Made by a program: the position numbers and the translations under genes
Shown: positions 6,265 to 58,977 of the stretch, one piece after another
How positions within the stretch are numbered: position 1 is the first letter of the stretch
Layout: every line of letters begins with the position of its first letter
Assembly (NCBI GenBank): GCA_029858205.1
Contig: JAOUFM010000003.1
Span: forward strand, 210,936-274,935
Length of the DNA stretch: 64,000 bases
Direction of reading: 5' to 3'
Source of the DNA: Deltaproteobacteria bacterium
GTDB lineage: Bacteria; Desulfobacterota; GWC2-55-46; DRQE01
Notes under the pieces: model-generated
What the model saw: the letters and a program-made list of their open reading frames with translations, nothing else
Told to the model about the DNA's origin: nothing
The model's database searches: none

Positions 6265-7065
6265 TTAAATCGGCACGGCAAAAAGATGCACCCGCCTGTC
6301 TATCTCCGTCTTGCCATCATAGACTACCGGCTCCTCATTATCCGCCCATTGAATCCAAACCTTATATTCGGTTATATCGATAAAATCGAGAAGATCCTTT
6401 ATCTTTGCATTATAATTCTGTAAGGCATCGGTATGCACTTCTATTACAAGTTTTGGTTTCCGCTTTAGGATTTCACCGGCCCCGCGCAGCACCTCAACCT
6501 CATACCCCTCCACGTCCACCTTCAATACGGTAGGCTTACAATCCAGATAATCGTCCAGACGCACAGAATCGACCACCAAACCCGTCCCGAAAGCGCTTTT
6601 CATAACAAAAGAATTGGACGTATTCCCGATCCGAAGCCGTCCCGTGACCACACCAACCGCCTTCTCCTCGACAAGTACATTTTTCAGACGATTAATTTCC
6701 ATATTTTTGCGCAAAATACGCGCGTTATTCGGCAACGCTTCGAAGGTAACCACCTTGCCGCTCTCCCCGACCCAGTTCGACAACAATATAGTTGTGCATC
6801 CATGATGCCCACCACATTCAAGAACAACATCTCCCTTGCCAACGATATTATCCCGCACGAACCTCATTTCAATCCAGTCAGGATCGGTACAACCAACATC
6901 GTACCATTCTCGGCCGGACGTATCTCCTATCAGAAAATCAAAAGTAACGCCCTCGATAGTTTTTCTCTTGATGTATGGCCTGAAAAACAAAGCGCGCAAT
7001 TCGCCGATTTTAGATAACATGCCCCAACACAGGCTTCTGAACCAATACAGAAGACTTTTTTTCAT
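6265..7065 (-). CDS. FkbM-family methyltransferase
   Basis: 'VLKVDVEGYEVEVLRGA' FkbM motif. Confidence 0.75.
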   Translation of the reverse strand: MKKSLLYWFRSLCWGMLSKIGELRALFFRPYIKRKTIEGVTFDFLIGDTSGREWYDVGCTDPDWIEMRFVRDNIVGKGDVVLECGGHHGCTTILLSNWVGESGKVVTFEALPNNARILRKNMEINRLKNVLVEEKAVGVVTGRLRIGNTSNSFVMKSAFGTGLVVDSVRLDDYLDCKPTVLKVDVEGYEVEVLRGAGEILKRKPKLVIEVHTDALQNYNAKIKDLLDFIDITEYKVWIQWADNEEPVVYDGKTEIDRRVHLFAVPI

Positions 7066-7080
7066 CTATACAATTCTCCT

Positions 7081-7802
7081 TTACTTTATAGCAAGGAACC
7101 CCTCGAAACAAACATATTTAAAAACCGTAATTACATCCACAAATCCGGCGCGCTTTAGCAAGTCGGCATTTCCCTGCGACGAAAACGGCTCCAGAACACC
7201 CTTTAAACTGCGCGCCTTGGACACTATTTCTTCGGCCGTATATCCCTGTCTGAGTTTATATTCATTATACAATCCGGTCATGATATCCTGAAACCGAGCA
7301 TCATTGGCTCTGACCTTTTCAAACAGAATAAAGGCCCCTCCCCAATTGAGGTTTTCATATATGCGGTTAAATATGTCCTGCCTTACGCGCGGCTTTACAA
7401 ACTGCAGTGTGTAGTAGGCCGTAAAGACATCGGCCTTCTCATAGTTATACTGGAATATATCGGCGGCCTCGAACTCGACATTTACAGCACTTGATTGTTT
7501 CTTCTTTTCCAGAGCCATCTTTATCATATCCGGCTCGATATCTATGCCTACGAACCTGGCCTCGGGCTTTGTGCTGTTATGCCGAGCGAGCTTCAGCGTC
7601 AACTCACCTGTCGATGTCCCGAGTTCATAGCATAAAGAATTTTTCCCGACAAAAAAATCGCTCAAATTACAGATCAACTCGTGCCCTTCGTTATAAAAGG
7701 GAACCGACCGCGAAACATGCTCATCGAAATTCTTGGCCACATCTCCTTTGAAGTTCCAGTTCGCATTGGCAGCCGTAAGACCGTCTCCGACACCGGACAT
7801 AT
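7081..7802 (-). CDS. CmoA-like class I SAM-dependent methyltransferase / carboxy-SAM-synthase-like enzyme. Start re-assigned to the ATG at 7802 behind a GAGAGGAGAGA Shine-Dalgarno; the 88-codon upstream extension in the ORF track is Arg-rich junk.
   Basis: 'NFDEHVSRSVPFYNEGHELI...CYELGTSTGELTLKL...GIDIEPDMIKMA...TLQFV' is colinear with E. coli CmoA ('[24 protein letters not shown]...'). Confidence 0.6.
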
Positions 7803-7906
7803 TATCTCTCCTCTCTGTCTTCTTTGATATTACACGCTCGCGCAACGGACCACAACAGCGCATTGTCTGCCGCCCTCGCGGTACAAAAACCCTTGCAACA
7901 TGTTTT

Positions 7907-8689
7907 TCACTTAAAGAAATCCGAGCCCAGAATATTATATTTGCCGAGCCTTTCCTCCTGCAATTCAAAGGTTGTAATATCGCCCTTTTTGTCCCAGATA
8001 ATTTCGTACTTTCTGGTAAAATTTCTCTCGAGAAACCGCGCGTTGTTCGTTCTGCCGTCAATTATTATAAAAGTGCCTGGCAGAAAAGTCGGCTCCATCA
8101 ACAGCAAGTCCGCAGACATGACAGTACGCTCATCGCACTGAAAACTCAATCCGTTTACCTGCCCCTGCACGTCCTTGGGCGTCGGTCCGTCTAGATAAAT
8201 AAAATCAGGCACTACATCGGGCAAATTTTTATAATAATGGCAAATTTGCCCGATGTGCGTTCCTATCACAACATCGCTTTGCTGCACATGAACCCTGTCG
8301 CGCAGGTCCTCCGGAATTTTGCCTTTCGTTTGCTCTATCCAATGCATGGACGCGTCGACCGAAAAGATTTTGAACATAAAACGATTTCGTACCTCGGGTT
8401 TGTCCGGCAAGGCATTCCATTCTATTTCGTTCTTCCTTAATGCATCGGCCATAACCATTGTCGAATATCCTATCCCGAACTCCAGCACAGTGAAACACTT
8501 GCGGCTCCTGACAAGTTTATGTAACCGGACCAGGTCCGCAACCTGTAGCGGGAAAGGAAGTATCCTCTTGCCGCTTACGGAATCATAGACATCTCTTTGC
8601 GCGTCGCCGCCCGCCTGGAAATCAATTAATCTATCCAGACCGTTTGCAACGATATATTCATTATCATCCATGTTTTTTCCCAAACTCAT
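7907..8689 (-). CDS. Class I SAM-dependent methyltransferase
   Basis: Motif I 'VLEFGIGYSTMVMA'; 260 aa; good RBS (GAGAGG) before the ATG. Confidence 0.5.
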   Translation of the reverse strand: MSLGKNMDDNEYIVANGLDRLIDFQAGGDAQRDVYDSVSGKRILPFPLQVADLVRLHKLVRSRKCFTVLEFGIGYSTMVMADALRKNEIEWNALPDKPEVRNRFMFKIFSVDASMHWIEQTKGKIPEDLRDRVHVQQSDVVIGTHIGQICHYYKNLPDVVPDFIYLDGPTPKDVQGQVNGLSFQCDERTVMSADLLLMEPTFLPGTFIIIDGRTNNARFLERNFTRKYEIIWDKKGDITTFELQEERLGKYNILGSDFFK

Positions 8690-8744
8690 TATTTGCCTCT
8701 CGATTGCCGTATTTATCTAAGCCAACGGCGCACATCGGCTTGTA

Positions 8745-9893
8745 TCACAAATATGCCAATCTTTTTTGGATATAAAGCACCACCTGTGATAATGCCGCAG
8801 CAATTTTCCCGCTGGCAGTACCGTCACCATACAGACTGCTGGGGGTAAATCCGCCCTTACCAAGCTGCTTTTTCACGGCCTCGAATATCAATGTGCGTTC
8901 AGGAGCAACAGGTAACACATTCTCCGCCACTTCGCGCCCGCCCTGCCTGTCCCCCACCAGCACGACCGGAGTTCCAAGAAAGGACGAATCCCGCACAAAA
9001 CTGCTGCTATTACCGATGGCGCACGAAGCATTTGCAAGCACCTTAAGGTAATTTTCCGGAGTAAAATTTTTTATCAAACGAAGCCACTTTGCCTCGCGTT
9101 GCTCACGAAAAGCGCGAATAACCTTGCTCACATGATCGGAGCCGGCATCAATATTAGGCCACAACCATACCGTCGGCATCTTAATCTCGCCCAATGCCGT
9201 AATAAGTTGCAACGTTTCGTCCTTTTCCATCCCATACTCGGTGGTAACCGGATGGAAAACCACCAGCAGATATTTATCCGTAGCTGCTATTTCCCCGCCA
9301 ACACCGCGCGCAAAGATATCGAACGGCAGCTCTTTATTAAGCTTTAATGCTATATCGCCGCTTGGACATCCGACAAAAAACACGGTTTCTGGCCTTTCAC
9401 CCATACTTTTCAAATGCTCGGCAGCCTTGCGCGTGGACGGGAAATGAAAATGCGCGAGTTTCGTAATGGCATGCCTTGCGCTCTCGTCTATAGATCCGCT
9501 GACCTCTCCCCCCTGTATATGCGCAATGCAAATATTCATATATGACGCGGCCAGAGCGGCGGCTAACGCTTCATACCTGTCGCCGATAATGAGAACAATA
9601 TCCGGACGAAGCCTCTGGAATTCGCTCGCGAATTCTATTACGGCAAAACCGAGCGACTTGGCCATCGTCAACGGCGTAGACCCTTCCAGTTCTATATATA
9701 TTTCACTGCTTACATCAAAACCATCGGTTCTGACAATATTTACGGGAGCTCCAAACCGCTCCAAGACCATCGTTCCGGCACATACAACTTGCAGGGCCAG
9801 ATCATCGTTACGTTTCACGGCCTCCATGACAGGCTTGAGCCTTCCATAATTGGCCCTATCAACCAAGATAACGGCAATTTTACGTTTATTCAT
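8745..9893 (-). CDS. neuC: UDP-N-acetylglucosamine 2-epimerase (hydrolysing), NeuC family
   Basis: 'KIAVILVDRANYGRLKPV...IGDRYEALAAALAASYMNICIAHIQGGEVSGSIDE' is typical of NeuC/SiaA. Confidence 0.8.
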   Translation of the reverse strand: MNKRKIAVILVDRANYGRLKPVMEAVKRNDDLALQVVCAGTMVLERFGAPVNIVRTDGFDVSSEIYIELEGSTPLTMAKSLGFAVIEFASEFQRLRPDIVLIIGDRYEALAAALAASYMNICIAHIQGGEVSGSIDESARHAITKLAHFHFPSTRKAAEHLKSMGERPETVFFVGCPSGDIALKLNKELPFDIFARGVGGEIAATDKYLLVVFHPVTTEYGMEKDETLQLITALGEIKMPTVWLWPNIDAGSDHVSKVIRAFREQREAKWLRLIKNFTPENYLKVLANASCAIGNSSSFVRDSSFLGTPVVLVGDRQGGREVAENVLPVAPERTLIFEAVKKQLGKGGFTPSSLYGDGTASGKIAAALSQVVLYIQKRLAYL

Positions 9894-9920
9894 ATAATAT
9901 CCGGCTCCACCTCGCTACAC

Positions 9921-10970
9921 TCATTTCAAGTCTTTAAGACTTATGAATTCGTCGGCACAAACGCAACGCTTAAGTTTTTTTCCATAAAGCTTTTTCAGCA
10001 TGCTTGCCGGTATGCCTATATTCGGCTTTTTAAGAATAAGATCTCCTTCTTCGAGAATTTTCCCTGCCGGAAGATCTGTTCTCGGCACGACACTTCTGCG
10101 AAATATTTCCCGTATCGTCTCAAGTTCTTTTGCCACAGAGTTTTTTTTAACTGGATTTAGCGCGGCTATTTCCAAAAATCTTACTCCCTTTGCCAATTGC
10201 GCCAACTCTTCCATGGTTACGGACGCTATCACGTCGGGGCCAAACATATGCCGCGACATCGTGACATGCACCTCGACAAACCTGGCGCCAAGCGCACAGG
10301 CGGCAAGCCCTGGGTAAATCGTCCCGGAATGGTCCGACAATCCGACCGGGCAACCAAACTGCCGGCTATACCCGGCAAGAACGTTAAGCCCGATTTTTTC
10401 CGGCGGAGTCGGGTACATCGTCGTCGCCTGGAATAAGGAAAAAACAGTTTTTTCCCTTTTTAAAAACGCGACAACTTTTTTTATTTCCCTGTCGGTGCTC
10501 ATGCCGGTAGAGATCAAAACCGGTTTTCGCGTGGCAACTATCCGTTCCAACATTGCCTCATTACCCAATTCTCCGGACCCTATTTTCCACGCGGCAATAC
10601 CTGCCTTTTGCAACAGATTTACGGCCTCTAACGAAAACGGCGAACTGAGAAAATGCAGTCCCTTGCTGCGCGCATACTTTGCCAAACCGCACCATTGCTC
10701 CGGCGTAAACTCCATCCTCTTCCAATAATCATATCTATTTCTGTCCTGCCTGCTAAACTTAACCCTAAACGGTTCATCCAACGTGCTTTCCGCATCGGCG
10801 ATATGGGTTTGGAACTTAATGGCATCCACGCCGGCCTCTGCCACGACATCTACGAATGCATACGCCTGACCGAGGCTCCCGTCGTGCGTTTGCGCGACCT
10901 CGGCAATCAAAAAACACGCCTTGCAGCCTCTTTCGAAATACTTCCCGATATTTTGCATTTTCCGCACCAC
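9921..10970 (-). CDS. neuB: N-acetylneuraminate (nonulosonic acid) synthase, NeuB family
   Basis: NeuB TIM-barrel motifs ('FLIAEVAQTHDGS', 'AGVDAIKFQTH') plus a C-terminal SAF domain. Confidence 0.85.
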   Translation of the reverse strand: MVRKMQNIGKYFERGCKACFLIAEVAQTHDGSLGQAYAFVDVVAEAGVDAIKFQTHIADAESTLDEPFRVKFSRQDRNRYDYWKRMEFTPEQWCGLAKYARSKGLHFLSSPFSLEAVNLLQKAGIAAWKIGSGELGNEAMLERIVATRKPVLISTGMSTDREIKKVVAFLKREKTVFSLFQATTMYPTPPEKIGLNVLAGYSRQFGCPVGLSDHSGTIYPGLAACALGARFVEVHVTMSRHMFGPDVIASVTMEELAQLAKGVRFLEIAALNPVKKNSVAKELETIREIFRRSVVPRTDLPAGKILEEGDLILKKPNIGIPASMLKKLYGKKLKRCVCADEFISLKDLK

Positions 10971-17253: not shown

Positions 17254-17919
17254 TCAAACCTGTCCTTTTTTGCTGATGTCTATGATCCGTGCCTGAACAA
17301 CCCCTGCCTCTATCAATGCCTTCGAAAGTTCCGCGCTTCTATAAAACGAAGTTATTACTATGGCCTCGGCTGCGCCGTCCCTGAGCTTTTCAATACCGAC
17401 AACCGGCATATCGAAAAACTTTTCGGTTCTTTCGATATCCGAAATGCAGACAAGCTCCAACCCGGCCTCCTTTAAAGACAGATACGCTATCTCGGCAACC
17501 TCATCTACGCCGCAGAAAGCGACTCTGCTTATGCCAAGCTCCTTCAACCTTGCAAACAGTTCAGCGAAATCCGTCCTCGCAACCCTGTAGAGGTTGGTAA
17601 AATTCCTCAGATGTTCGTAGGTGAGACGGGTCTTTTCAAGAAAACCATTTGGCGTAAGATAATATTTGTAGCGCTTTGCGGGAATACCGGAGACTGTTAT
17701 GTAACCTTTTGAAATGAGATTCTTTATGTAGGAATTTATGAGTCCCAGCGCAATACCGAGGTTTTTGCTTATTTCACGCTGGGTTAGGTCGCCGTTTCGC
17801 GATATCTCGTCAAGCACGAGAAGCGAACGGTACCCATCCATATGGCCGTTTTTATCCTCGCTGTTCATACTATGAACATACCATTTAATCAGGCATTTTG
17901 TCAAGTAAAACGCGTTCAT
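17254..17919 (-). CDS. Winged-helix transcriptional regulator with a C-terminal Rossmann-like domain. It is the last gene before the glycan cluster and divergent from the novel cassette.
   Basis: 'LDEISRNGDLTQREISKNLGIALGLINSYIKNLISKGYITV' wHTH. The real start is possibly the internal Met at 17868. Confidence 0.45.
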   Translation of the reverse strand: MNAFYLTKCLIKWYVHSMNSEDKNGHMDGYRSLLVLDEISRNGDLTQREISKNLGIALGLINSYIKNLISKGYITVSGIPAKRYKYYLTPNGFLEKTRLTYEHLRNFTNLYRVARTDFAELFARLKELGISRVAFCGVDEVAEIAYLSLKEAGLELVCISDIERTEKFFDMPVVGIEKLRDGAAEAIVITSFYRSAELSKALIEAGVVQARIIDISKKGQV

Positions 17920-18050
17920 GCAATGAACTGGCCGCGCGCAAAAAATTAGTAATTTACATTTGCCGGGGTTTTATTGTATGGTATATTACTTAAAATTCCC
18001 CGTGCTGTTTTATTAAAAAATATTCCAACTTCGCTATCTGAAAAGTAAAT

Positions 18051-18080
18051 TTGGCCATGCCAGTCTTTTTATGCTACAAT
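18051..18080 (+). promoter_or_regulatory. Candidate sigma-70 promoter for the 5-gene cassette: -35 TTGGCC (18051-56), 18-nt spacer, extended -10 TGcTACAAT (18072-80).
   Basis: Read directly from the sequence, about 22 nt upstream of the ATG at 18103; the leader is short with a weak SD. Confidence 0.3.
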
Positions 18081-18102: not shown

Positions 18103-20238
18103 ATGAATGCCAGAGATTTTGAAAAAGAGATAAAAATCCACATCGAAGCGCGCTACCCCATTTTGTGGCTCGTATCGTTCGAAGAGCGCCGGGTCGAGCG
18201 CATCGTCGAAAACCTCTGCAATACCAACGGGTTCAAGTTCTGGACATGGTCCGTGTCAAAAGGGCTCTACGGTAGCGACAAAAAAAAGAAAGAGCCCGTT
18301 GGCAGGGAAAAAATCCTTACCTCCATTGAGGAAAAGATAGTAAAGAACGAGGAAATCAATAACTTCTTCCTTTTAAAGGACATTGCCGGGTATTTCCAAT
18401 CCCACGAGTTCCTAAGAAAGTTTCGCGACATCCCGGGCACCATCGAGGACTATCGCTCGCTTAACACCGTCTGCATCCTCTCGCCAACACTTAGCGAGAT
18501 TCCGCCGGAGCTCGAAGAAGACATCGTGGTAATCGAGCTTAGCCTGCCCGAGTACGACGAAATCGAGGAGATGGTAAACACGAACTTTTCCAAATACATC
18601 CCCGCGTCGTGGCATTCGTCTACGAGGTCGGTTCTCTACAAATCGCTACAGGGCCTTTCTCTAGATAACATCAAAAGGGTCGTAAGAAAGGCAATCAGCC
18701 TGAATAGAGGCGTGCTGAACGAAGAATGCATCAAGTACATACAGGACGAGAAGCAGCAAATCATAAAAAAGCAGCAGATACTCGATTACTACCCCTACAG
18801 GGAAACTATCGACCACATCGGCGGCCTCGATGAAATAAAAAAATGGTTCGTCGAGAGAGAGCATGTCTTCCGTTTAAGCAAGGGCAAAATCGAAACTCTC
18901 GGCCTTGACGTTCCAAAAGGCCTCATGCTAATTGGCGTTCCGGGCTCCGGGAAAAGCCTCTGCTGCAAGGCCCTTGCCGGCATCTGGAACCTTCCGCTTC
19001 TAAGAATGGACGTAGGCCGTCTCTTTGGCTCGACAGTCGGAGAGTCCGAGAAAAATATTCGTAAGGCCATACAGCTTGCAGAGGCGGTAAGCCCCTGCAT
19101 AATGTGGATCGACGAGATAGACAAGGCATTCGGCGGAATATCCGGTTTCCAGGGGGATTCGGGCACGCAGCTAAGGGTGTTTGGCACCTTCATCACATGG
19201 CTGCAGGAAAAGGACAAACCCGTCTTTGTCATAGCAACTGCCAACGACCCGAAAAACCTTCCTCCCGAGCTATGGAGAAAAGGCCGCTACGACGAAGTGT
19301 TCTTCGTCGATCTTCCAAGCGCCGAGGAAAGAGACGAAATATTCAAGATACACCTCGAAAGAAGAGGACAAAAACCGTCGAACTTCCGCTTAAAGGAACT
19401 CTCGCAGAACTCGCAGGGCTACACGGGCGCCGAGATAGAGCAGGCCATAAAGGACGCGGTCGTTGCCACATTCAACACTCTGCACGAGGGAAAAGAAGCA
19501 AAAGAGGCCGACGCAATAATAGACGGCACCTTAACCCTCTCACTCGACACGGCAACGCTTCTCGAAGCGATACGGCACATAACGCCGCTCTCGGTTCTGA
19601 AAAAAGAGGAGATCGAGGCGCTTCGCGAATGGAGCCAGCAAAGGGCGCGGCCCGCATCGAAGTCTCTCTTCATGCAGCGCGCAGAGATGCTCTCTGACGC
19701 GGAAAAGCGCACTATCGCCATACACGAGGCCGGACATATAATAATGATGTGGCATCACTTCAATGGCACGCCGGTCTTCGTGAGCATAGATAACTACAAG
19801 GACACCTCTGCATTCACCGGCAAGAGCGAAAGCCTCGTAAACACACTTACCAAGCGCGACCTGGAAAAGGAAATCGGCGTGATGCTTGGCGGCATGGTGG
19901 CCGAAGACGAGGTCGGCGGAGCGGACTCGAAAACTGTTGGCGCCTCGCACGACCTTAGCGACGCAACGGCCAAGGCAAGAAGAATGGTCGTGGAATACGG
20001 CTTTGGCGACATAATGAAGAACACGAGCCTTGTAGAGCTCCAGGAATACGCCATGATGTCCGGGAAAGACATTCTCGAGGACATACAGAAGATAATCCAC
20101 GGCGCAAAGGAAGAGACCGAGTCCGTCATTTCGAAGAACAAAGCGCTTCTCGAAAAGCTCGCGGACAAGCTCGTGGCGGAGATACTCGTAAACGGCGAGG
20201 GATTAAGGAATTTCCTTACGCAGCACAATCTGGAATAA
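18103..20238 (+). CDS. Soluble FtsH-like AAA+ ATPase-zinc metalloprotease (Ycf46-like N-domain + AAA + peptidase M41), no transmembrane anchor
   Basis: Walker A 'GVPGSGKS', Walker B 'IMWIDEID', sensor-1 'ATANDP', Arg-finger region 'RKGRYDEV', 'HEAGH' zinc motif and downstream 'GASHDLSDATAKARRMVVEYGFG' (FtsH 'GASNDIERATEIARKMV'). The N-terminal ~240 aa ('ARYPILWLVSFEERRVERIV') are non-membrane. Confidence 0.8.
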   Translation: MNARDFEKEIKIHIEARYPILWLVSFEERRVERIVENLCNTNGFKFWTWSVSKGLYGSDKKKKEPVGREKILTSIEEKIVKNEEINNFFLLKDIAGYFQSHEFLRKFRDIPGTIEDYRSLNTVCILSPTLSEIPPELEEDIVVIELSLPEYDEIEEMVNTNFSKYIPASWHSSTRSVLYKSLQGLSLDNIKRVVRKAISLNRGVLNEECIKYIQDEKQQIIKKQQILDYYPYRETIDHIGGLDEIKKWFVEREHVFRLSKGKIETLGLDVPKGLMLIGVPGSGKSLCCKALAGIWNLPLLRMDVGRLFGSTVGESEKNIRKAIQLAEAVSPCIMWIDEIDKAFGGISGFQGDSGTQLRVFGTFITWLQEKDKPVFVIATANDPKNLPPELWRKGRYDEVFFVDLPSAEERDEIFKIHLERRGQKPSNFRLKELSQNSQGYTGAEIEQAIKDAVVATFNTLHEGKEAKEADAIIDGTLTLSLDTATLLEAIRHITPLSVLKKEEIEALREWSQQRARPASKSLFMQRAEMLSDAEKRTIAIHEAGHIIMMWHHFNGTPVFVSIDNYKDTSAFTGKSESLVNTLTKRDLEKEIGVMLGGMVAEDEVGGADSKTVGASHDLSDATAKARRMVVEYGFGDIMKNTSLVELQEYAMMSGKDILEDIQKIIHGAKEETESVISKNKALLEKLADKLVAEILVNGEGLRNFLTQHNLE

Positions 20239-20248
20239 GGGCCCCGCT

Positions 20249-20587
20249 ATGTCGTTTTTCACAAAGCTCAACACCGAACTCAAAAACAAACAGTACGTGC
20301 TCGCTGCCATAGCCGCCCTTAAGCAGACAGGCGAGATAAAGAACTACGCCATAAACGAAAAGAAGGAAAGCGTCGAAATAAACCGCGCCGGCGACATTAT
20401 ACAGGTAGTAAAAACAAAGACCGGCGAGTACGAACTGCAGGGAGACGCAAGAGTGGTAAGCGCCTTCTCGAGCAGGCTAAAGCAGCTCTACGCGTACGAG
20501 GCAATCAAAGACAACATGCCGCTGGACTTCGAGATAGCCGAAGAGATAGAAACCGCCGGAGAGATCCGCATCGTGCTTAAAGGCTAA
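20249..20587 (+). CDS. Small conserved hypothetical protein (112 aa), possibly DUF1257/Ycf35-like
   Basis: Sits 10 nt after the protease gene. It is charged, Lys/Glu-rich and cysteine-free. The family assignment is from memory only. Confidence 0.4.
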   Translation: MSFFTKLNTELKNKQYVLAAIAALKQTGEIKNYAINEKKESVEINRAGDIIQVVKTKTGEYELQGDARVVSAFSSRLKQLYAYEAIKDNMPLDFEIAEEIETAGEIRIVLKG

Positions 20588-20589
20588 AT

Positions 20590-20775
20590 ATGGGTAAAGA
20601 GATAAAAATAAAGATAACACCCGACGGCAAGGTCGAGATAGATTCGACCGTGTTCAAGGACTGTAAAGAGGTGGCCGAACACCTATCGAAGGTCATAGGA
20701 AAGGTCGAGGTCTTCACCATAAAAGAAGAACACGAGCGCGAAGAAAAACTTCGCATAAAAAAAGGCGACAAATAA
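20590..20775 (+). CDS. Small hypothetical protein (61 aa), possibly DUF2997-like
   Basis: Begins 2 nt after the previous stop (translational coupling). 'KIKITPDGKVEIDSTVFKDCKEVAEHL...' with a Lys/Glu-rich tail. Confidence 0.35.
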   Translation: MGKEIKIKITPDGKVEIDSTVFKDCKEVAEHLSKVIGKVEVFTIKEEHEREEKLRIKKGDK

Positions 20776-20779
20776 GCAC

Positions 20780-21364
20780 ATGGCATCGTCGATATTCATA
20801 GACACGCACGCGATAATCGAGAGGTCGCGTGTAAACGGCCCAGGACAGAGGCTGGTGGTCTTTTTCCAGGGCTGTCACAGGAACTGTCCTGGCTGCTTCA
20901 ATCCGGCAACGCACTCAATCGGCACTGGCGTCAAATACGGCATACGGGAGATATTCGCGCGTTTCCTCTCTAAAAACGTAAGCGGCTTAACTGTTAGCGG
21001 AGGTGAGCCGTTTCTGCAAAGCGCGGCGCTCTGTGAACTGCTTAAAACCGCAAAACGCGAACACGGCCTTACGACCGCCGTGTACACGGGATTCACGATA
21101 GAGGAAATACGTTCATCAACGGAGCTTAGCCCTGCGCTCGAGCACATAGACGTGCTCATAGACGGGGCGTTCGACGAAAACAACACAGAAAGGACAACTC
21201 TTGCAAGAGGTTCCACAAACCAGCGCCTTCACTTTCTCTCCGGCGTTTATTCGATAGATGATTTTATTTTGCCAGGCAAAGCGGAGATAATAATCAACAA
21301 GGACGGTTCGGTGGTAGAGACCGGATTTTCGAAGCCGGCGGGAATAAACTCCATCCTCTTGTAA
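20780..21364 (+). CDS. NrdG-family radical-SAM activase (glycyl-radical-enzyme activating protein-like, single 4Fe-4S cluster)
   Basis: 'VNGPGQRLVVFFQGCHRNCPGCFNPATH' (CX3CX2C), 'GLTVSGGEPF', 'AVYTGFTIEEI', 'VLIDGAFDEN...RGSTNQRLHFL' are colinear with E. coli NrdG. Confidence 0.75.
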   Translation: MASSIFIDTHAIIERSRVNGPGQRLVVFFQGCHRNCPGCFNPATHSIGTGVKYGIREIFARFLSKNVSGLTVSGGEPFLQSAALCELLKTAKREHGLTTAVYTGFTIEEIRSSTELSPALEHIDVLIDGAFDENNTERTTLARGSTNQRLHFLSGVYSIDDFILPGKAEIIINKDGSVVETGFSKPAGINSILL

Positions 21365-21377
21365 AACGACCCACACC

Positions 21378-24161
21378 ATGACGATAGAGAACTTCTTCAG
21401 GGACAATTCCGGCATAGCGCGCACAAGCGCAGTTGAGCAGCGCGACGCGGCGCTAAAATACCTGCGCTCGCTGCCAGAGTCTAGCGACAGGGCCGAGGAC
21501 TTCAAATCGGCGTACGCGTACATACGAAACATCAGCGACGCCGAAGAAATGCGAAACGCACTCATCGAGCTTGCCATCACGATGCCAAAGCACGGCCCGT
21601 GCATGGACCTGTTTAAAGAAGTGTTCCCCGGCGCCATCAACTCCACAGACGCCATACCCGAGCCCATACACCGCAAATCAACGCTTACGCGCCTTGTAGA
21701 CTGCGTGCCCGACAAACCGGAGTACGCCGAGGCATACGCGCGCGTCGTGGAAAAATACATCGAGGCCGCAGACAAGATAGACGACCGCTTTGCGCGGCGC
21801 TACGCGCTTGCGGAAATTGCATCGAGACTCAAACACAGGGACGAATACGAAGCCCTCATGCTCCATGCCATGAAGGTGAGCCTCGGGTTTGCCGGCCTTC
21901 CGGGCTTTAGGCAATACTCGCTTCCCGAGATAGCAAGGGAACTTCCGAAAAGCTGCGACGTGGAGGTCTACAGAAACCACACATTCCTCGGGCTTGCGTT
22001 CTCGCTGCCGCACAGGGGCGAGTTCCTCGAACTCTTCAAAAAGGCCCTGACCACGGCCATCGAGTCAACGGAGCACATCGTTGAGCCGTATTACAAGAAA
22101 TACGCCCTTCTCTTCATGGCCAACAGGCTGCCCGAGACAGCAGAGTTTTTACCGCTAAGAAAGAGCGCTTTCAGGGCCGCCCTTGCCTCGGTCGACACGC
22201 TCGCCGACAGCTTCGCCAGGCAGTACGGATATAACGAATTCCTAAAGGACGTGCCAAAGACGCGCGAATTCTCCGACATACTGCTCGATACGGTCGAGAA
22301 GAGCCTTCCGTTCTTTTCTCTAAGAAGCCAGATGTCGGACTACGAGCCCATAGAGATACTCGACCGGATACTGATCGTCGCGGACAAAAAAATATCGGAT
22401 TCGAAGAAAAAACATTACACCCGCTTCCATTACGCCGATTTTTTCCTGAAACAGCTGAACCTGATAGCCGATAACTTAAACGATGTGCGCCTTCTGGAAA
22501 TTCTAAGGCCCTACACGCACGTATGGGTAAGGCCAAAAACTTTCAGGGACTCGATACGCAAGGTGTTCGACAAGGTCTCGTCCTTAAAAGGCAGATACCA
22601 CGGCGCCGAAGTAGAGCGTCCACTTTATGTCAGCGAGGCATGCCTCGGCATAGACAAACGAAGCCGCACGGCATCCGTTATGGCGGATACGCGCGAAGGC
22701 TACGCGCTCTCGATAGACCTTGGCGCCACCAATACCGTTGTAATGCTTAAAAAACCCGGGGCATTCCCGGAATTCGTCAACATAGAAGGATTATCCGAAA
22801 CCATCGGAAGCGTTGCCTTCATAAGCACGGCAGTAGACAAGAACAACGACTTGATAGGCGCTGCGGCGCCGGCCCAGTCGCGCTCGAACAACATAAAAAA
22901 ACTGTTCATGGAAGGCGACGAAGAGGGGCGCGAGCTCATCGAGAAGTTTTTCCGCATCCTGTACTCCAGAATAAAGGAATCTGTCGAGGTGCCCGGGTTT
23001 TTCAAGAAACTTTCCGGCAGGATTTTCGATACCGTTTCCGTGACAGTGCCGGTCGGGTATACGGATTACAGCGGCGAACTTACCAGAATCATCGAAAAAT
23101 ACGCGGGCAGCGCGCGCATAAAGCTCGTGGAAGAGCCGCTTGCTGCGGCGATAGGCTATAACGTGGCGGAGAAAAAGGAAAAATTCGTCCTTGTTCTCGA
23201 CTTTGGCGGCTGCACGCTCGACCCGATGCTTTTAAGGCTCTCTACCGACATGACACACGTCATAGCAAAGCCCGACAGATCCAAGATGCTTGGCGGGCGC
23301 GACATAGACCGCTGGGTGGCCGAGTACGTGAACGAAAAGCATAACCTTAGGACCAACCCTTCGGGGCACGAGGCCCTGACTGCGGCAGAGGCGCTGAAAA
23401 TAGAACTTAGCGCCAAAAACTCGGCGAAGTTCGTGTTTGGCGGCCGCGATATCGCGGAACTTACGCGCATAGAGTTCGAGGAGCTTCTCTCGCGCAGAGG
23501 GTTCTACAGCGACATAGACAGGGAACTTTCGAACGTGCTAAAAAAGGCTTCGAAGCTCGGCGTTTATAAATCCATGATAGAGGCCGTCATCATAACCGGG
23601 GGCTCTTCGCAGATACCGTCGTTCAAGGAAAAGATATCTCACTACTTCCACAACCTGGCCGTGCAAAACGCGATATACGACCACAGCCCGCTGTCGTCGG
23701 TCGCAAGGGGCGCGGCCCTCTACGGCACGGCCTCGGTGCTGGACCGCCACCTGGCCATGGCGTACGCAATAAAGCACATTGCAAGGGAAGAGGAAAAACA
23801 GTTTGCCTACGAAATCGTACTCGAAAAGGGCGAATCGCTTCCGTTCAAAAAGACCTTGCGCTTTACTCCTGCCATGACGCTCGGTGGACAGAAGGAAATA
23901 TTTCTCGAACTCTTCGAGGTGCCCGATTCCCTTATCGTACGGCGCTGGATATCCGAGGGCGGCATGGAGTTCATAAAGCAAATACTTAAGCACACGCCCG
24001 ACGAACTCGATCTGAGGGCTTTCAAGACCGTCACGCTTTCATTCGACGCTCCTATAGAAGGAAGCACAGACATCACATTTATAGTGGAAGAGAACGGACG
24101 ATTGAAGGTGCGCTACGAAAAAGACGGCCGCGAACTTGCAACCGACATACACCTTCAGTAA
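21378..24161 (+). CDS. Large Hsp70/actin-fold ATPase with a ~430-aa N-terminal alpha-helical repeat domain
   Basis: Hsp70 phosphate-1 'IDLGATNTVV', phosphate-2 'VLDFGGCTLDPML', adenosine motif 'VIITGGSSQIPSF', 'LVEEPLAAAIGY'; 927 aa. Confidence 0.75.
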   Translation: MTIENFFRDNSGIARTSAVEQRDAALKYLRSLPESSDRAEDFKSAYAYIRNISDAEEMRNALIELAITMPKHGPCMDLFKEVFPGAINSTDAIPEPIHRKSTLTRLVDCVPDKPEYAEAYARVVEKYIEAADKIDDRFARRYALAEIASRLKHRDEYEALMLHAMKVSLGFAGLPGFRQYSLPEIARELPKSCDVEVYRNHTFLGLAFSLPHRGEFLELFKKALTTAIESTEHIVEPYYKKYALLFMANRLPETAEFLPLRKSAFRAALASVDTLADSFARQYGYNEFLKDVPKTREFSDILLDTVEKSLPFFSLRSQMSDYEPIEILDRILIVADKKISDSKKKHYTRFHYADFFLKQLNLIADNLNDVRLLEILRPYTHVWVRPKTFRDSIRKVFDKVSSLKGRYHGAEVERPLYVSEACLGIDKRSRTASVMADTREGYALSIDLGATNTVVMLKKPGAFPEFVNIEGLSETIGSVAFISTAVDKNNDLIGAAAPAQSRSNNIKKLFMEGDEEGRELIEKFFRILYSRIKESVEVPGFFKKLSGRIFDTVSVTVPVGYTDYSGELTRIIEKYAGSARIKLVEEPLAAAIGYNVAEKKEKFVLVLDFGGCTLDPMLLRLSTDMTHVIAKPDRSKMLGGRDIDRWVAEYVNEKHNLRTNPSGHEALTAAEALKIELSAKNSAKFVFGGRDIAELTRIEFEELLSRRGFYSDIDRELSNVLKKASKLGVYKSMIEAVIITGGSSQIPSFKEKISHYFHNLAVQNAIYDHSPLSSVARGAALYGTASVLDRHLAMAYAIKHIAREEEKQFAYEIVLEKGESLPFKKTLRFTPAMTLGGQKEIFLELFEVPDSLIVRRWISEGGMEFIKQILKHTPDELDLRAFKTVTLSFDAPIEGSTDITFIVEENGRLKVRYEKDGRELATDIHLQ

Positions 24162-58902: not shown

Positions 58903-58977
58903 TGGAGCCGGCGGGGAGAATCGAACTCCCGACCTACTGATTACGAATCAGTTGCTCTGCCCCTGAGCTACGCCGGC
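58903..58977 (-). tRNA. tRNA-Thr (anticodon CGT)
   Basis: The reverse complement folds as a cloverleaf: acceptor GCCGGCG, D-arm GCTC/GAGC, anticodon stem ACTGA/TCAGT with loop TTCGTAA, T-arm GGGAG-TTCGATT-CTCCC, 3' CCA encoded. Confidence 0.85.

Follow-up and report, generated by a model that had tools for sequence, protein, structure and literature searches.

Within a 64,000-nucleotide (nt) stretch of DNA from an uncultured Deltaproteobacteria bacterium (contig JAOUFM010000003.1, positions 210,936 to 274,935; here called the window, whose own numbering we use throughout), five adjoining plus-strand genes form a cassette in an order conserved far beyond chance. They encode a soluble FtsH-like AAA+/M41 protease (gene 1, 18103-20238, 711 amino acids [aa]), two small proteins that appear to be divergent members of the DUF1257/Ycf35 (gene 2, 20249-20587, 112 aa) and DUF2997 (gene 3, 20590-20775, 61 aa) families, an NrdG-like radical S-adenosylmethionine (SAM) enzyme (gene 4, 20780-21364, 194 aa), and an Hsp70-like ATPase (gene 5, 21378-24161, 927 aa). 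All five start with ATG, and open reading frame (ORF) calling on the window reproduced to the base the coordinates and the gaps of 10, 2, 4, and 13 nt given in a preliminary description that was made from the sequence alone. The same description had guessed all five domain types, including DUF1257/Ycf35 and DUF2997, and our hidden Markov model (HMM) and profile searches led to the same families, with the small proteins scoring below threshold in Pfam.

Each part of the cassette belongs to a known superfamily, and the combination appears to be new as a kind of system. The preliminary description knew of no pathway or defense system of this composition, and neither did we find one in the openly searchable literature (subscription journals being outside the scope) or in any curated model of Pfam, NCBIfam, PADLOC, or PHROGs. 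The cassette does not stand alone, being the form that a wider partnership takes in one lineage; this partnership extends across phyla and plasmids, and its core is also present in a Rhizobium phage. We tentatively read the cassette as a system for adaptor-guided, soluble AAA+ proteolysis that may be coupled to a chaperone-assisted radical-SAM step.

Conservation of the cassette within its lineage

A scan with the 112-aa family, taking one genome per GTDB species, returned 76 loci, all hosted by uncultured metagenome-assembled genomes labeled Deltaproteobacteria, Thermodesulfobacteriota, or Nitrospirae. Judging by their titles, many of these loci stem from groundwater metagenomes. When related loci were collected by tblastn and ORF extraction, the five genes kept their order in 62 of 81 loci (76 species-level genomes), and in most of the other 19 the cassette is interrupted by contig ends. 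Six gene-context look-ups gave the same picture, with all six keeping the five genes in order. The preliminary description had taken the genes for one coupled unit, and this synteny bears it out; database searches assigned the genes to no characterized, unrelated pathway. Median gaps across the loci are 15.5, 47.5, 42.5, and 7 nt, and the radical-SAM and Hsp70-like genes often overlap (minimum, −14 nt).

The position of the cassette beside the same sugar-nucleotide genes is also conserved. In relatives that share these flanks, the identity of the AAA-M41 protein (74 to 75%) equals that of the flanking housekeeping enzymes (66 to 78%), while the other four cassette proteins diverge faster (37 to 66%). 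The conserved position and the housekeeping-like identity of AAA-M41 argue for vertical descent under strong constraint and indicate that the locus is inherited at a stable position and is not part of a mosaic island. Its composition is native, as had been suspected from its codon usage: the GC content of the cassette is 0.47 to 0.55, compared with a range of 0.44 to 0.55 in the window. Only one genome, MHEI01 (Nitrospirae bacterium RBG_16_43_11), has more than a single copy of the cassette. Its two copies lie on separate contigs (L078 and L079), and the radical-SAM gene of L078 matches residues 18 to 80 only and may be a pseudogene or an assembly artifact.

A few loci have lost or gained material. 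In L029 (11124-14399), unrelated genes stand in place of the Hsp70-like gene, and in L024 (435-4484), the Hsp70-like gene is split into ORFs of 282 and 473 aa and a retropepsin-like gene occupies the AAA-M41 position. In L006 (= L071), genes for a Dcm-type methylase, an NgoFVII-type endonuclease, and Vsr (6601-9143) are inserted between genes 3 and 4 on the same strand, and all five cassette genes are retained despite this restriction-modification insertion. L044 has a 1.9-kb insertion between the DUF2997-like and radical-SAM genes (approximately 8596-10477). A gap of about 0.95 kb separates the radical-SAM and Hsp70-like genes in L013 and L034, whereas in most genomes these genes overlap or lie a few nucleotides apart.

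No relative of the cassette subfamily was found among 2.9 million viral contigs, and a viral origin of the subfamily was rejected on this ground. DUF1257 relatives of the MSHF type do occur on 457 viral contigs (IMG/VR). The best 80 of these 457 contigs (L172-L251) have no AAA, radical-SAM, or Hsp70 partner within 6 kb, and the DUF1257 proteins of the inspected 80 look like a stand-alone, Ycf35-like type.

An FtsH-like AAA+/M41 protease without a membrane anchor

Gene 1 matches the Pfam families AAA (PF00004; E = 6e-30) and Peptidase_M41 (PF01434; E = 2e-19), and its product consists of a degenerate AAA-like N-domain, followed by an active AAA domain of the classical type and by a zinc peptidase of family M41. 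Homologues are found in more than 120 database clusters at 71 to 77% identity, nearly all of them 711 to 713 aa long, and phrog_8638, a PHROG family listed as of unknown function, matches aa 3 to 526 (E = 6e-128). The absence of a membrane anchor, noted in the preliminary description, was borne out by hydropathy: over 19 residues, gene 1 peaks at a Kyte-Doolittle value of 1.17 and has no transmembrane segment, and no 19-residue window of any of the five cassette proteins reaches transmembrane-level hydrophobicity (maxima, 1.17 to 1.40).

The N-domain (aa 1 to 230; 18103-18792, plus strand, as are all motifs below) is alpha/beta with an AAA+-like strand order and lacks a P-loop, the sequence S-x-EE-x-R standing where the P-loop would be. 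These first 230 residues match no Pfam family, and their signature is common to all DUF1257-linked AAA proteins of the family. AlphaFold (AF2) predicts a beta-alpha-beta order with a helical lid for the N-domain (pLDDT confidence, 80 to 89); the model of the AAA-M41 protein is confident for the N-domain and M41 only (predicted template modeling score [pTM], 0.37). A profile of the N-domain, searched against PDB sequences, gave a marginal match to the AAA+ core of RFC3 (E = 0.1). From the modeled fold and this marginal match, we infer that the N-domain is a degenerate AAA+-like domain without a P-loop.

The catalytic residues are invariant in 64 family members. These include Walker A (GVPGSGKS, aa 278 to 285; 18934-18957), Walker B (WIDEID), the SRH (second region of homology) arginines R392 and R395, the M41 site H541-E542-x-x-H545 (19723-19737), and D617 (19951-19953), the residue that supplies the third zinc ligand. 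Pore-loop 1 (GSTVGESE, aa 309 to 316; 19027-19050) is likewise invariant in 64 sequences. It has a Thr in the usual aromatic position and an invariant Phe three residues upstream. In FtsH, the aromatic residue of pore-loop 1 is required for proteolysis. The DUF1257-linked AAA family as a whole (L085-L164 and the window) lacks the canonical aromatic residue, having Thr, Leu, Ile, or His instead; the pore-loop motif of the wider family is G(S/G)(L/I/T/H/Y)VG(E/S/Q)SE, with an invariant Phe a few residues upstream across the family.

The M41 domain was found in none of the examined homologues outside the window's lineage. Its fusion to the AAA protein in this one lineage can be read, in "Rosetta stone" fashion, as a hint that AAA proteins of the family deliver substrates to a protease, and they would therefore be expected to thread polypeptides, an expectation with which the missing aromatic residue sits uneasily. 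We also considered RVFG in the AAA protein as a glycyl-radical motif and rejected it: it lies in a stretch that is conserved across the DUF1257-linked AAA family and that, to judge from other AAA proteins, should be helical and lie between Walker B and sensor-1.

Two small proteins related to DUF1257/Ycf35 and DUF2997

The product of gene 2 has an MSF(Y/F)T N terminus and the motifs RLKQxYAYE and PLDFEI. Its match to Pfam DUF1257 (PF06868) is subthreshold (E = 0.016; 15.8 bits against a gathering score of 22.2). When a 22-sequence profile of the protein was searched against 1.84 billion representative sequences, the only matches beyond its own tight family were full-length ones to proteins of about 125 aa (E = 2e-5 to 1e-3), and these proteins score as Pfam DUF1257 (E = 1e-9 to 6e-26). 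The gene 2 family and bona fide DUF1257 proteins share MS(H/F)xT, QxYAY, and C-terminal strand motifs, and the PHROG family phrog_20456 (DUF1257, listed as "unknown function") matches gene 2 (E = 8e-9). We therefore treat gene 2 as a probable divergent DUF1257/Ycf35 member. A ubiquitin-like or glycyl C terminus was considered for this protein and rejected, as several homologues end in Asp where it has Gly.

Gene 3 has a subthreshold Pfam DUF2997 (PF11211) match of E = 5.7e-4 (20.1 bits; gathering score, 24.1). The protein has an N-terminal hairpin (I-x-I-x-P-DG-K-V-E), an invariant cysteine (C25; 20662-20664), and an invariant Gly37. In other phyla, DUF1257 is followed by bona fide DUF2997 ORFs of about 70 aa (Pfam E = 6e-18 and 3e-13); the gene 3 protein aligns with them and has in common with them an L-G motif, the hairpin, and the one Cys. 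DUF2997 stands directly after DUF1257 in the window and in most of the wider loci described below. Gene 3 thus appears to encode a divergent DUF2997 protein. The loop glycines of ordinary DUF2997 proteins (VRGVKG) are unlikely to be a universal radical site, since they are missing in the 61-aa protein.

A radical-SAM enzyme without a glycyl-radical enzyme

Gene 4 is a clear Fer4_12 match (E = 7e-34). Its best curated model is NrdG (TIGR02491), against which it scores 117.3 bits with a cutoff of 126.1, the alignment covering only aa 10 to 151 of 194; the top sequence match in the PDB is pyruvate formate-lyase (PFL) activase (E = 1e-8), and in PHROGs the protein matches a family annotated as "anaerobic ribonucleotide reductase small subunit" (E = 9e-33). 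The protein carries the CX3CX2C motif (C32-x3-C36-x2-C39; 20873-20896, plus strand), SGGEP, and RGSxNQ, and the first two of these are invariant in the family. Past the end of the NrdG model match lies a conserved C-terminal extension of about 40 aa (PGKxExxIxxDGxVxETGF). Identity with prokaryotic viperin (pVip) is not supported: NF038283 gives 27 bits against a cutoff of 180, and the PADLOC pVip match (E = 1e-7) covers the shared radical-SAM core only.

The preliminary description called this gene an orphan, and by its neighborhoods it is one. The NrdD partner of an NrdG is usually the product of a neighboring gene. No real gene of the 64-kb window has a glycyl-radical signature, and no ORF of at least 300 aa in 171 loci (1.73 Mb) has a C-terminal R[IVT]xG[YWF] motif. 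The substrate of the radical-SAM enzyme would therefore be something other than a glycyl-radical enzyme, most economically a partner protein. Homologues of gene 4 (33 to 44% identity) adjoin AAA genes in Acidobacteriota and on Treponema, Bacillus, and Paenarthrobacter plasmids.

The tail of the enzyme (aa 152 to 187; 21233-21340) resembles the N-terminal hairpin of DUF2997, EIxIxIxxDGxV (in the window, 20590-20640). In an hhalign comparison, the two matched over 15 columns with a probability of 69% (P = 4.6e-5), and they may represent a shared docking hairpin.

An Hsp70-like ATPase with a helical-repeat extension

Gene 5 has 54 full-length homologues at 37 to 48% identity. Its N-terminal region (aa 1 to 440; 21378-22697, plus strand) comprises approximately seven helical repeats of 41 aa, with the signature LP(K/E)xxEF at aa 69, 110, 151, 189/210, 251, and 292. 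The repeat region has no Pfam match and its HMM matches nothing in the wider loci, suggesting that it is lineage-specific; homology of the repeats to the HEAT-WD40 partner of those loci was rejected as the HMM search was empty.

The remainder (22698-24161, plus strand) consists of an Hsp70 nucleotide-binding domain (aa ~441 to 790) and a C-terminal domain resembling the beta part of the Hsp70 substrate-binding domain (SBD-beta; aa ~791 to 927), without a helical lid. The Pfam nucleotide-binding domain match spans aa 551 to 783 (E = 5e-27), and the domain aligns to BiP and DnaK (E = 8e-20). The phosphate-1, phosphate-2, and adenosine motifs are intact, with IDLGATNT, EEPLAAAIGY, DFGGxTLD, and ITGGSSQIP conserved. 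Among NCBIfam models, HscA (E = 1e-28) scores better than DnaK (1e-23), at 83 to 100 bits compared with equivalog cutoffs of 620 to 820. The C-terminal HMM of gene 5 matches the C terminus of the ~530-aa Hsp70-like proteins of the wider loci. The overlap between the radical-SAM stop and the Hsp70-like start suggests that the two proteins are partners that act together.

In several relatives, an hrcA-grpE-dnaJ cluster without dnaK between grpE and dnaJ lies about 6 kb downstream of the cassette (L001, 18530-21374; L003, 18198-21028; L007, 18834-21624).

A wider AAA-DUF1257-DUF2997 partnership

Wider loci were collected by a metagenome scan anchored on bona fide DUF1257, followed by tblastn, ORF calling, and family HMMs. 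The anchor profile was a four-sequence DUF1257 alignment, as a broader one was too divergent. Among the 51 DUF1257-anchored loci of at least 3 kb, an AAA gene was present within ~6 kb in 24, a radical-SAM gene in 17, and an Hsp70-like gene in 16; the rest, marine samples included, had DUF1257 alone.

The AAA proteins of these loci (500 to 540 aa) match residues ~6 to 519 of gene 1 at 36 to 43% identity and never carry M41, and the N-domain HMM matches AAA proteins beside genuine DUF1257 from unrelated metagenomes with E values of 1e-11 to 1e-28. The radical-SAM proteins belong to the same NrdG-like clade as gene 4 (36 to 44% identity). The Hsp70-like proteins, of about 530 aa, consist of the nucleotide-binding domain and SBD-beta with no helical-repeat region, and a GrpE-like gene lies directly 5′ of their genes (Pfam E = 2e-7 and 4e-7). 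Often a HEAT-like and WD40 protein is encoded as well (L090, 414-1916; L108, 1690-3984; L112, 1504-3747; L116, 3043-5880; L132, 2148-4310; L165, 10539-12743). Its conserved tail, "(G)EFDIEI," is part of a motif at the extreme C terminus, RFDIxxxxxxxIxxGEFDIEI, which has no counterpart in the window and could be a docking tail or a degron. Neither GrpE-like nor HEAT-WD40 genes were found among the called genes of the six tabulated relatives of the window locus.

By cluster names, the L085-type example is from Blastocatellia (Acidobacteriota), and tblastn with its N-domain found 28 plasmids and 40 phages. On the Pseudanabaena galeata plasmid pPg_01, the order is grpE, Hsp70, DUF1257, two inserted genes, DUF2997, AAA, and WD40, all among toxin-antitoxin genes, with no radical-SAM gene within 9 kb. 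A Geminocystis plasmid has DUF1257, DUF2997, a zeta toxin gene, and AAA, adjoining RloB and DUF4007 genes. Megaplasmids of Bacillus cereus and of Paenarthrobacter, from the Actinomycetota, carry radical SAM, a ~145-aa ORF (with a subthreshold DUF1257 match in B. cereus only), a helix-hairpin-helix protein, AAA, and DUF2997. The helix-hairpin-helix protein, of about 250 aa (L168, 7163-7903; L169, 10261-11034), replaces the Hsp70, GrpE, and WD40 genes in these megaplasmids and hints at a DNA-linked variant of the module. In and beside the DUF1257-DUF2997-AAA module of the cyanobacterial plasmids, we observed selfish or defense-type gene pairs, namely, ATP-binding plus hypothetical protein, ATP-binding plus RloB, and a zeta toxin (L165, 7152-8725; L166, 5115-7045 and 7926-8923).

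On plasmid pTRESU01 of Treponema succinifaciens (L167, 7345-9500), radical-SAM and AAA genes lie in a contractile-injection-system locus, between VgrG/Pvc8-type and baseplate genes. This is the place at which such loci normally have a Pvc15/Afp15-type ATPase gene. Rhizobium phage L338C encodes AAA, gp051, DUF1257 (E = 5e-9), and DUF2997 (E = 2.5e-5), and cluster O mycobacteriophages encode an AAA protein with the same N-domain, with no DUF1257 or DUF2997 among the five neighboring genes scanned.

That these families recur together in rearranged orders, in five phyla or more and also on mobile elements, strongly supports a functional linkage between them. The core of the wider system appears to be AAA(N-domain)-DUF1257-DUF2997. 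Radical SAM and Hsp70/GrpE are frequent accessories that tend to travel together, and WD40 or helix-hairpin-helix proteins are lineage-specific additions. The window cassette is probably a lineage-specific, five-gene condensation of this system that came about by two fusions: an intact M41 zinc peptidase would have been joined to the AAA+ protein, giving a soluble FtsH-like protease, and about 440 aa of helical repeats would have been joined to Hsp70.

A proposed mechanism and its alternatives

The preliminary description had offered three readings, any of which may be right: an ATP-driven remodeling or degradation machine, a small protein that the radical-SAM enzyme modifies and that serves as signal or substrate, and an anti-phage or abortive-infection module. 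In the mechanism that we tentatively favor, the AAA-M41 hexamer would unfold and degrade a specific protein target, and the DUF1257/DUF2997 pair would dock on the AAA N-domain as an adaptor or gate. The Hsp70-like protein would hold an extended protein segment, from which the translationally coupled NrdG-like enzyme would abstract a hydrogen atom. Glycyl-radical activases, such as those of PFL and NrdD, need the target loop to be flipped out, which is why we propose that the Hsp70-like protein presents an extended segment. The radical-SAM step would thus be glycyl-radical-activase chemistry on a substrate other than a canonical glycyl-radical enzyme, and proteolysis or remodeling would then depend on a radical or modification that is sensitive to oxygen or redox state. 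The role may be endogenous, as a regulated proteostasis system or stress checkpoint, which would match reports on the cyanobacterial ycf46 and ycf35 clusters. A related version, which we regard as possible rather than probable, is a radical-SAM-gated remodeling or degradation machine in which the NrdG-type activase and Hsp70 mark a protein that is not a glycyl-radical enzyme and thereby switch the adaptor-guided AAA+ protein on or off. Candidate targets of the mark are the DUF2997 or DUF1257 partner or the AAA+ protein itself.

Several observations weigh against regulated proteolysis with a radical-SAM step. The adaptor and substrate roles are guesses. With Thr for the aromatic residue of pore-loop 1 here and aliphatic residues in the wider family, processive threading does not seem assured. 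The cassette encodes no J-domain protein, the window and scanned loci have no canonical glycyl-radical motif, the VRGVKG glycines are missing from the 61-aa protein, and the C-terminal Gly of the 112-aa protein is not invariant. The decay or loss of parts in L024, L029, and L078 means that the system is not essential everywhere. Finally, the wider family occurs on plasmids amid toxin-antitoxin and defense-type genes and in phages, where a conflict role fits at least equally well.

Such a role, the main rival reading, is unlikely, though credible, for the cassette as a whole. It would be a biological-conflict system, acting in anti-phage or anti-plasmid defense or, in mobile relatives, as a counterdefense or takeover module; the helical-repeat/Hsp70 protein would sense an invader protein, AAA-M41 would be the effector, and the radical-SAM enzyme would make a toxic or signaling product or arm the effector. 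On cyanobacterial plasmids, core relatives do have RelE, PIN, MazF, and zeta toxins as neighbors, along with RloB, DUF4007, and HNH genes; selfish pairs are inserted within the plasmid modules, and L006 has its restriction-modification genes between genes 3 and 4. The AAA N-domain family is present in the 40 phage genomes, DUF1257 and DUF2997 are encoded by phage L338C, the matching PHROG families are listed as of unknown function, and PADLOC registers a generic likeness to IetA (E = 4.5e-32) and a weak one to pVip. Partners of the WD40/HEAT type are, moreover, typical of nucleoside triphosphate-dependent conflict systems (Kaur et al. 2020). However, the cassette is single-copy in all genomes but one, has a conserved chromosomal position and native composition, is absent from the viral contigs, and has an AAA-M41 protein conserved like housekeeping enzymes. 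Defense genes are expected to be patchy and fast-evolving. Nor does the cassette reach any PADLOC or NCBIfam system model or include an IetS, MoxR, or vWA partner, and DUF1257 (ycf35) and ycf46 are retained in plastid genomes, which would be unexpected for immunity genes. We find it rather improbable that the cassette serves iron-sulfur or redox homeostasis, with an HscA-like Hsp70 and the AAA+ protein maturing, repairing, or removing an oxygen-labile [4Fe-4S] protein, the radical-SAM enzyme as client instead of modifier, and DUF1257/DUF2997 as redox-linked cofactors. The best NCBIfam match of gene 5 to HscA would fit, as would the single invariant Cys of DUF2997, the cotranscription of DUF2997 and Ycf35 with Fed7, which binds a DnaJ-like protein, and the joint loss of ycf35 and ycf46 with ycf34 and pbsA in red algae. 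Yet the preference for HscA over DnaK is small and the scores are far under the cutoffs (100 versus 620 bits), no IscU, HscB, or Suf genes occur in the cassette or in the gene lists of the related loci examined, and the fusion to M41 points to degradation, not maturation. The Pseudanabaena plasmid, moreover, has Hsp70, GrpE, DUF1257, DUF2997, and AAA without a radical-SAM gene nearby, so the chaperone does not need a radical-SAM client.

We give still less credence to gene 4 being an ordinary NrdG for an nrdD elsewhere in the genome, with a cassette that serves or regulates anaerobic deoxynucleoside triphosphate synthesis. The host lineage is probably anaerobic, and both the best model (TIGR02491, 117 bits versus 126) and the PHROG annotation name this function. 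Against this, the score stays under the curated cutoff, the C-terminal extension is conserved past the NrdG match, and no ORF of at least 300 aa with a C-terminal glycyl-radical motif was found in the window or the 171 loci. The radical-SAM clade is, furthermore, tied to the AAA gene across five phyla, Bacillus and Paenarthrobacter plasmids included, and PGAP names those plasmid proteins merely "4Fe-4S single cluster domain" proteins. Chance adjacency of unrelated housekeeping paralogues (of FtsH, NrdG, and DnaK) and two orphan ORFs could be entertained insofar as each large protein comes from a common housekeeping superfamily. It is effectively refuted by the synteny: the order is kept in 62 loci though the Hsp70-like proteins have diverged to 37 to 48% identity, the genes overlap or nearly abut, and the same families co-occur, rearranged, in other phyla.

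If the genes do work as a system, it would bring new components into the biology of bacterial proteostasis or conflict: an AAA+ protein with a degenerate N-domain, two small obligate partners, an activase-like enzyme without a glycyl-radical enzyme, and a private Hsp70/GrpE pair. It would test whether radical-SAM "activases" act on proteins beyond glycyl-radical enzymes, and it would give a functional handle on DUF1257/Ycf35, DUF2997, and possibly Ycf46, which are found cyanobacteria-wide, with Ycf35 and Ycf46 also in red-lineage plastids. Should the radical-gated version be true, the core would explain ycf35, and ycf46 if orthologous, as well as why its genes are carried by some large phages and megaplasmids. 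While the window organism is uncultured, tractable carriers exist in the B. cereus and Bacillus thuringiensis megaplasmids, Rhizobium phage L338C, and the plasmid of P. galeata. The AAA gene is also present in cluster O mycobacteriophages, and in mycobacteriophage Firecracker it is gp100.

Flanking genes and regulatory signals

The flanking genes on both sides of the cassette lie on the minus strand. Upstream are GDP-mannose and UDP-glucose sugar-nucleotide genes and a MarR-type helix-turn-helix gene, and downstream are genes for a cytidylyltransferase, a ComF-like phosphoribosyltransferase, and a histidine kinase. The MarR/HTH_24-type gene (17254-17919, minus strand; Pfam HTH_24 E = 2.5e-12) is divergent from the cassette. 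It is kept in L005, L008, L053, L063, and L076 (57 to 65% identity) and absent in L001, L003, and L007, which is why it does not count as a core part; confined to the closest relatives, it is a possible local regulator.

A consensus scan found two promoter-like sites on the plus strand, at 17953-17987 and 18051-18080, in the 184-nt spacer 5′ of gene 1. The second reads TTGGCC-18-TACAAT with an upstream TG; both are pattern matches and not functional evidence. By the same kind of scan, which gives pattern matches only, no plus-strand terminator-like site lies within the cassette. A riboswitch or other RNA leader was considered and rejected: Rfam matches nothing close to the cassette and, across the whole 64-kb window, only a distant tRNA gene (58906-58977, minus strand). 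Relatives L001 and L007 have a small ORF upstream of the cassette, which we set aside as an unrelated membrane peptide absent from the window.

Comparison with known systems

Searches for known defense systems with PADLOC gave only generic AAA (IetA), pVip, and PDC-M61B similarities. The cassette does not belong to IetAS: the IteA model NF042959 gives 102 bits against a cutoff of 510, the PADLOC IetA match covers the generic AAA core only, and neither the cassette nor its ten scanned flanking genes include an IetS subtilase.

A closer parallel is the FtsH-type ternary system of Kaur, Burroughs, Iyer & Aravind 2020, in which MoxR and vWA proteins are combined with tandem inactive and active FtsH-type AAA domains. 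According to Kaur et al. 2020, this system sometimes includes a radical-SAM gene and a small peptide gene and occurs in deltaproteobacteria. The cassette shares with it the tandem of degenerate and active FtsH-type AAA domains, a partner whose N-terminal domain is large and all-alpha, a radical-SAM gene, small stand-alone genes, and the deltaproteobacterial occurrence. However, neither MoxR nor vWA genes turn up in the cassette, in its ten scanned flanking genes, or in the gene calls of the six tabulated related loci, and the partners are instead Hsp70-like, DUF1257, and DUF2997 proteins. The resemblance is therefore thematic and does not amount to membership. The Pvc15/Afp15 ATPases of extracellular contractile injection systems, which unfold and load cargo, are built from an N-region, a catalytically deficient D1, and an active D2 of the classical AAA clade. 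By description, this domain layout is like that of the present AAA family, whose Treponema member lies in a contractile-injection locus. Pvc15 differs in keeping an aromatic pore loop (K528-Y529), and no DUF1257, DUF2997, or radical-SAM partners are known for it.

The three large proteins each resemble a housekeeping family from which they also depart. Gene 1 is like FtsH in that a single AAA domain of the classical clade, with arginine fingers in the SRH, precedes M41 HEXXH and a downstream Asp. It differs from FtsH in that a 230-aa AAA-like N-domain takes the place of the two N-terminal transmembrane helices and periplasmic domain, in its S-T-V-G pore loop where FtsH has aromatic-hydrophobic-Gly, in its TIGR01241 score (173 bits against a cutoff of 600), and in its dedicated partner genes. 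Gene 4 resembles the NrdG/PflA-family activases as a small Fer4_12-type protein with GCxxxCxGCxNP, SGGEP, and RGSxNQ, whose best models are NrdG and PFL activase; it differs in its below-cutoff score, its C-terminal hairpin extension, its linkage to AAA+ and Hsp70, and its lack of an adjoining glycyl-radical enzyme (NrdD) signature in the window or the 171 loci. Gene 5 shares with DnaK and HscA all nucleotide-binding ATPase motifs, followed by an SBD-beta-like domain, and in the wider system, a GrpE-like gene precedes the ~530-aa homologue. Unlike DnaK and HscA, gene 5 has the 440-aa repeat extension and no lid, and no J-protein or GrpE gene is present in the cassette.

The small proteins connect the cassette to cyanobacteria and plastids. 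In cyanobacteria, DUF2997, ycf35, and fed7 form a conserved, cotranscribed operon, and Fed7 is a [4Fe-4S] ferredoxin with a DnaJ-like binding partner; in plants, it occurs as a fusion to a J-domain. Ycf46 (slr0374/Synpcc7942_0417) has been described as an AAA-family ATPase encoded in a three-gene operon that is strongly stress-induced in a ppGpp-dependent manner. Across 127 red-algal plastid genomes, ycf35 and ycf46 share a loss pattern, and in red algae, they are lost together with ycf34 and the heme oxygenase gene pbsA. A putative link between the cassette AAA and Ycf46 is suggested by the tie of ycf35 to ycf46 in the literature and by the JGI label "SpoVK/Ycf46/Vps4," a generic COG name. 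Compared with the Ycf35/Ycf46 operons, the cassette AAA has M41 and adjoins DUF1257 and DUF2997 directly, radical-SAM and Hsp70-like genes are added, and a ferredoxin gene is lacking. Among named proteins, Ycf35 and perhaps Ycf46 are the closest relatives of the cassette.

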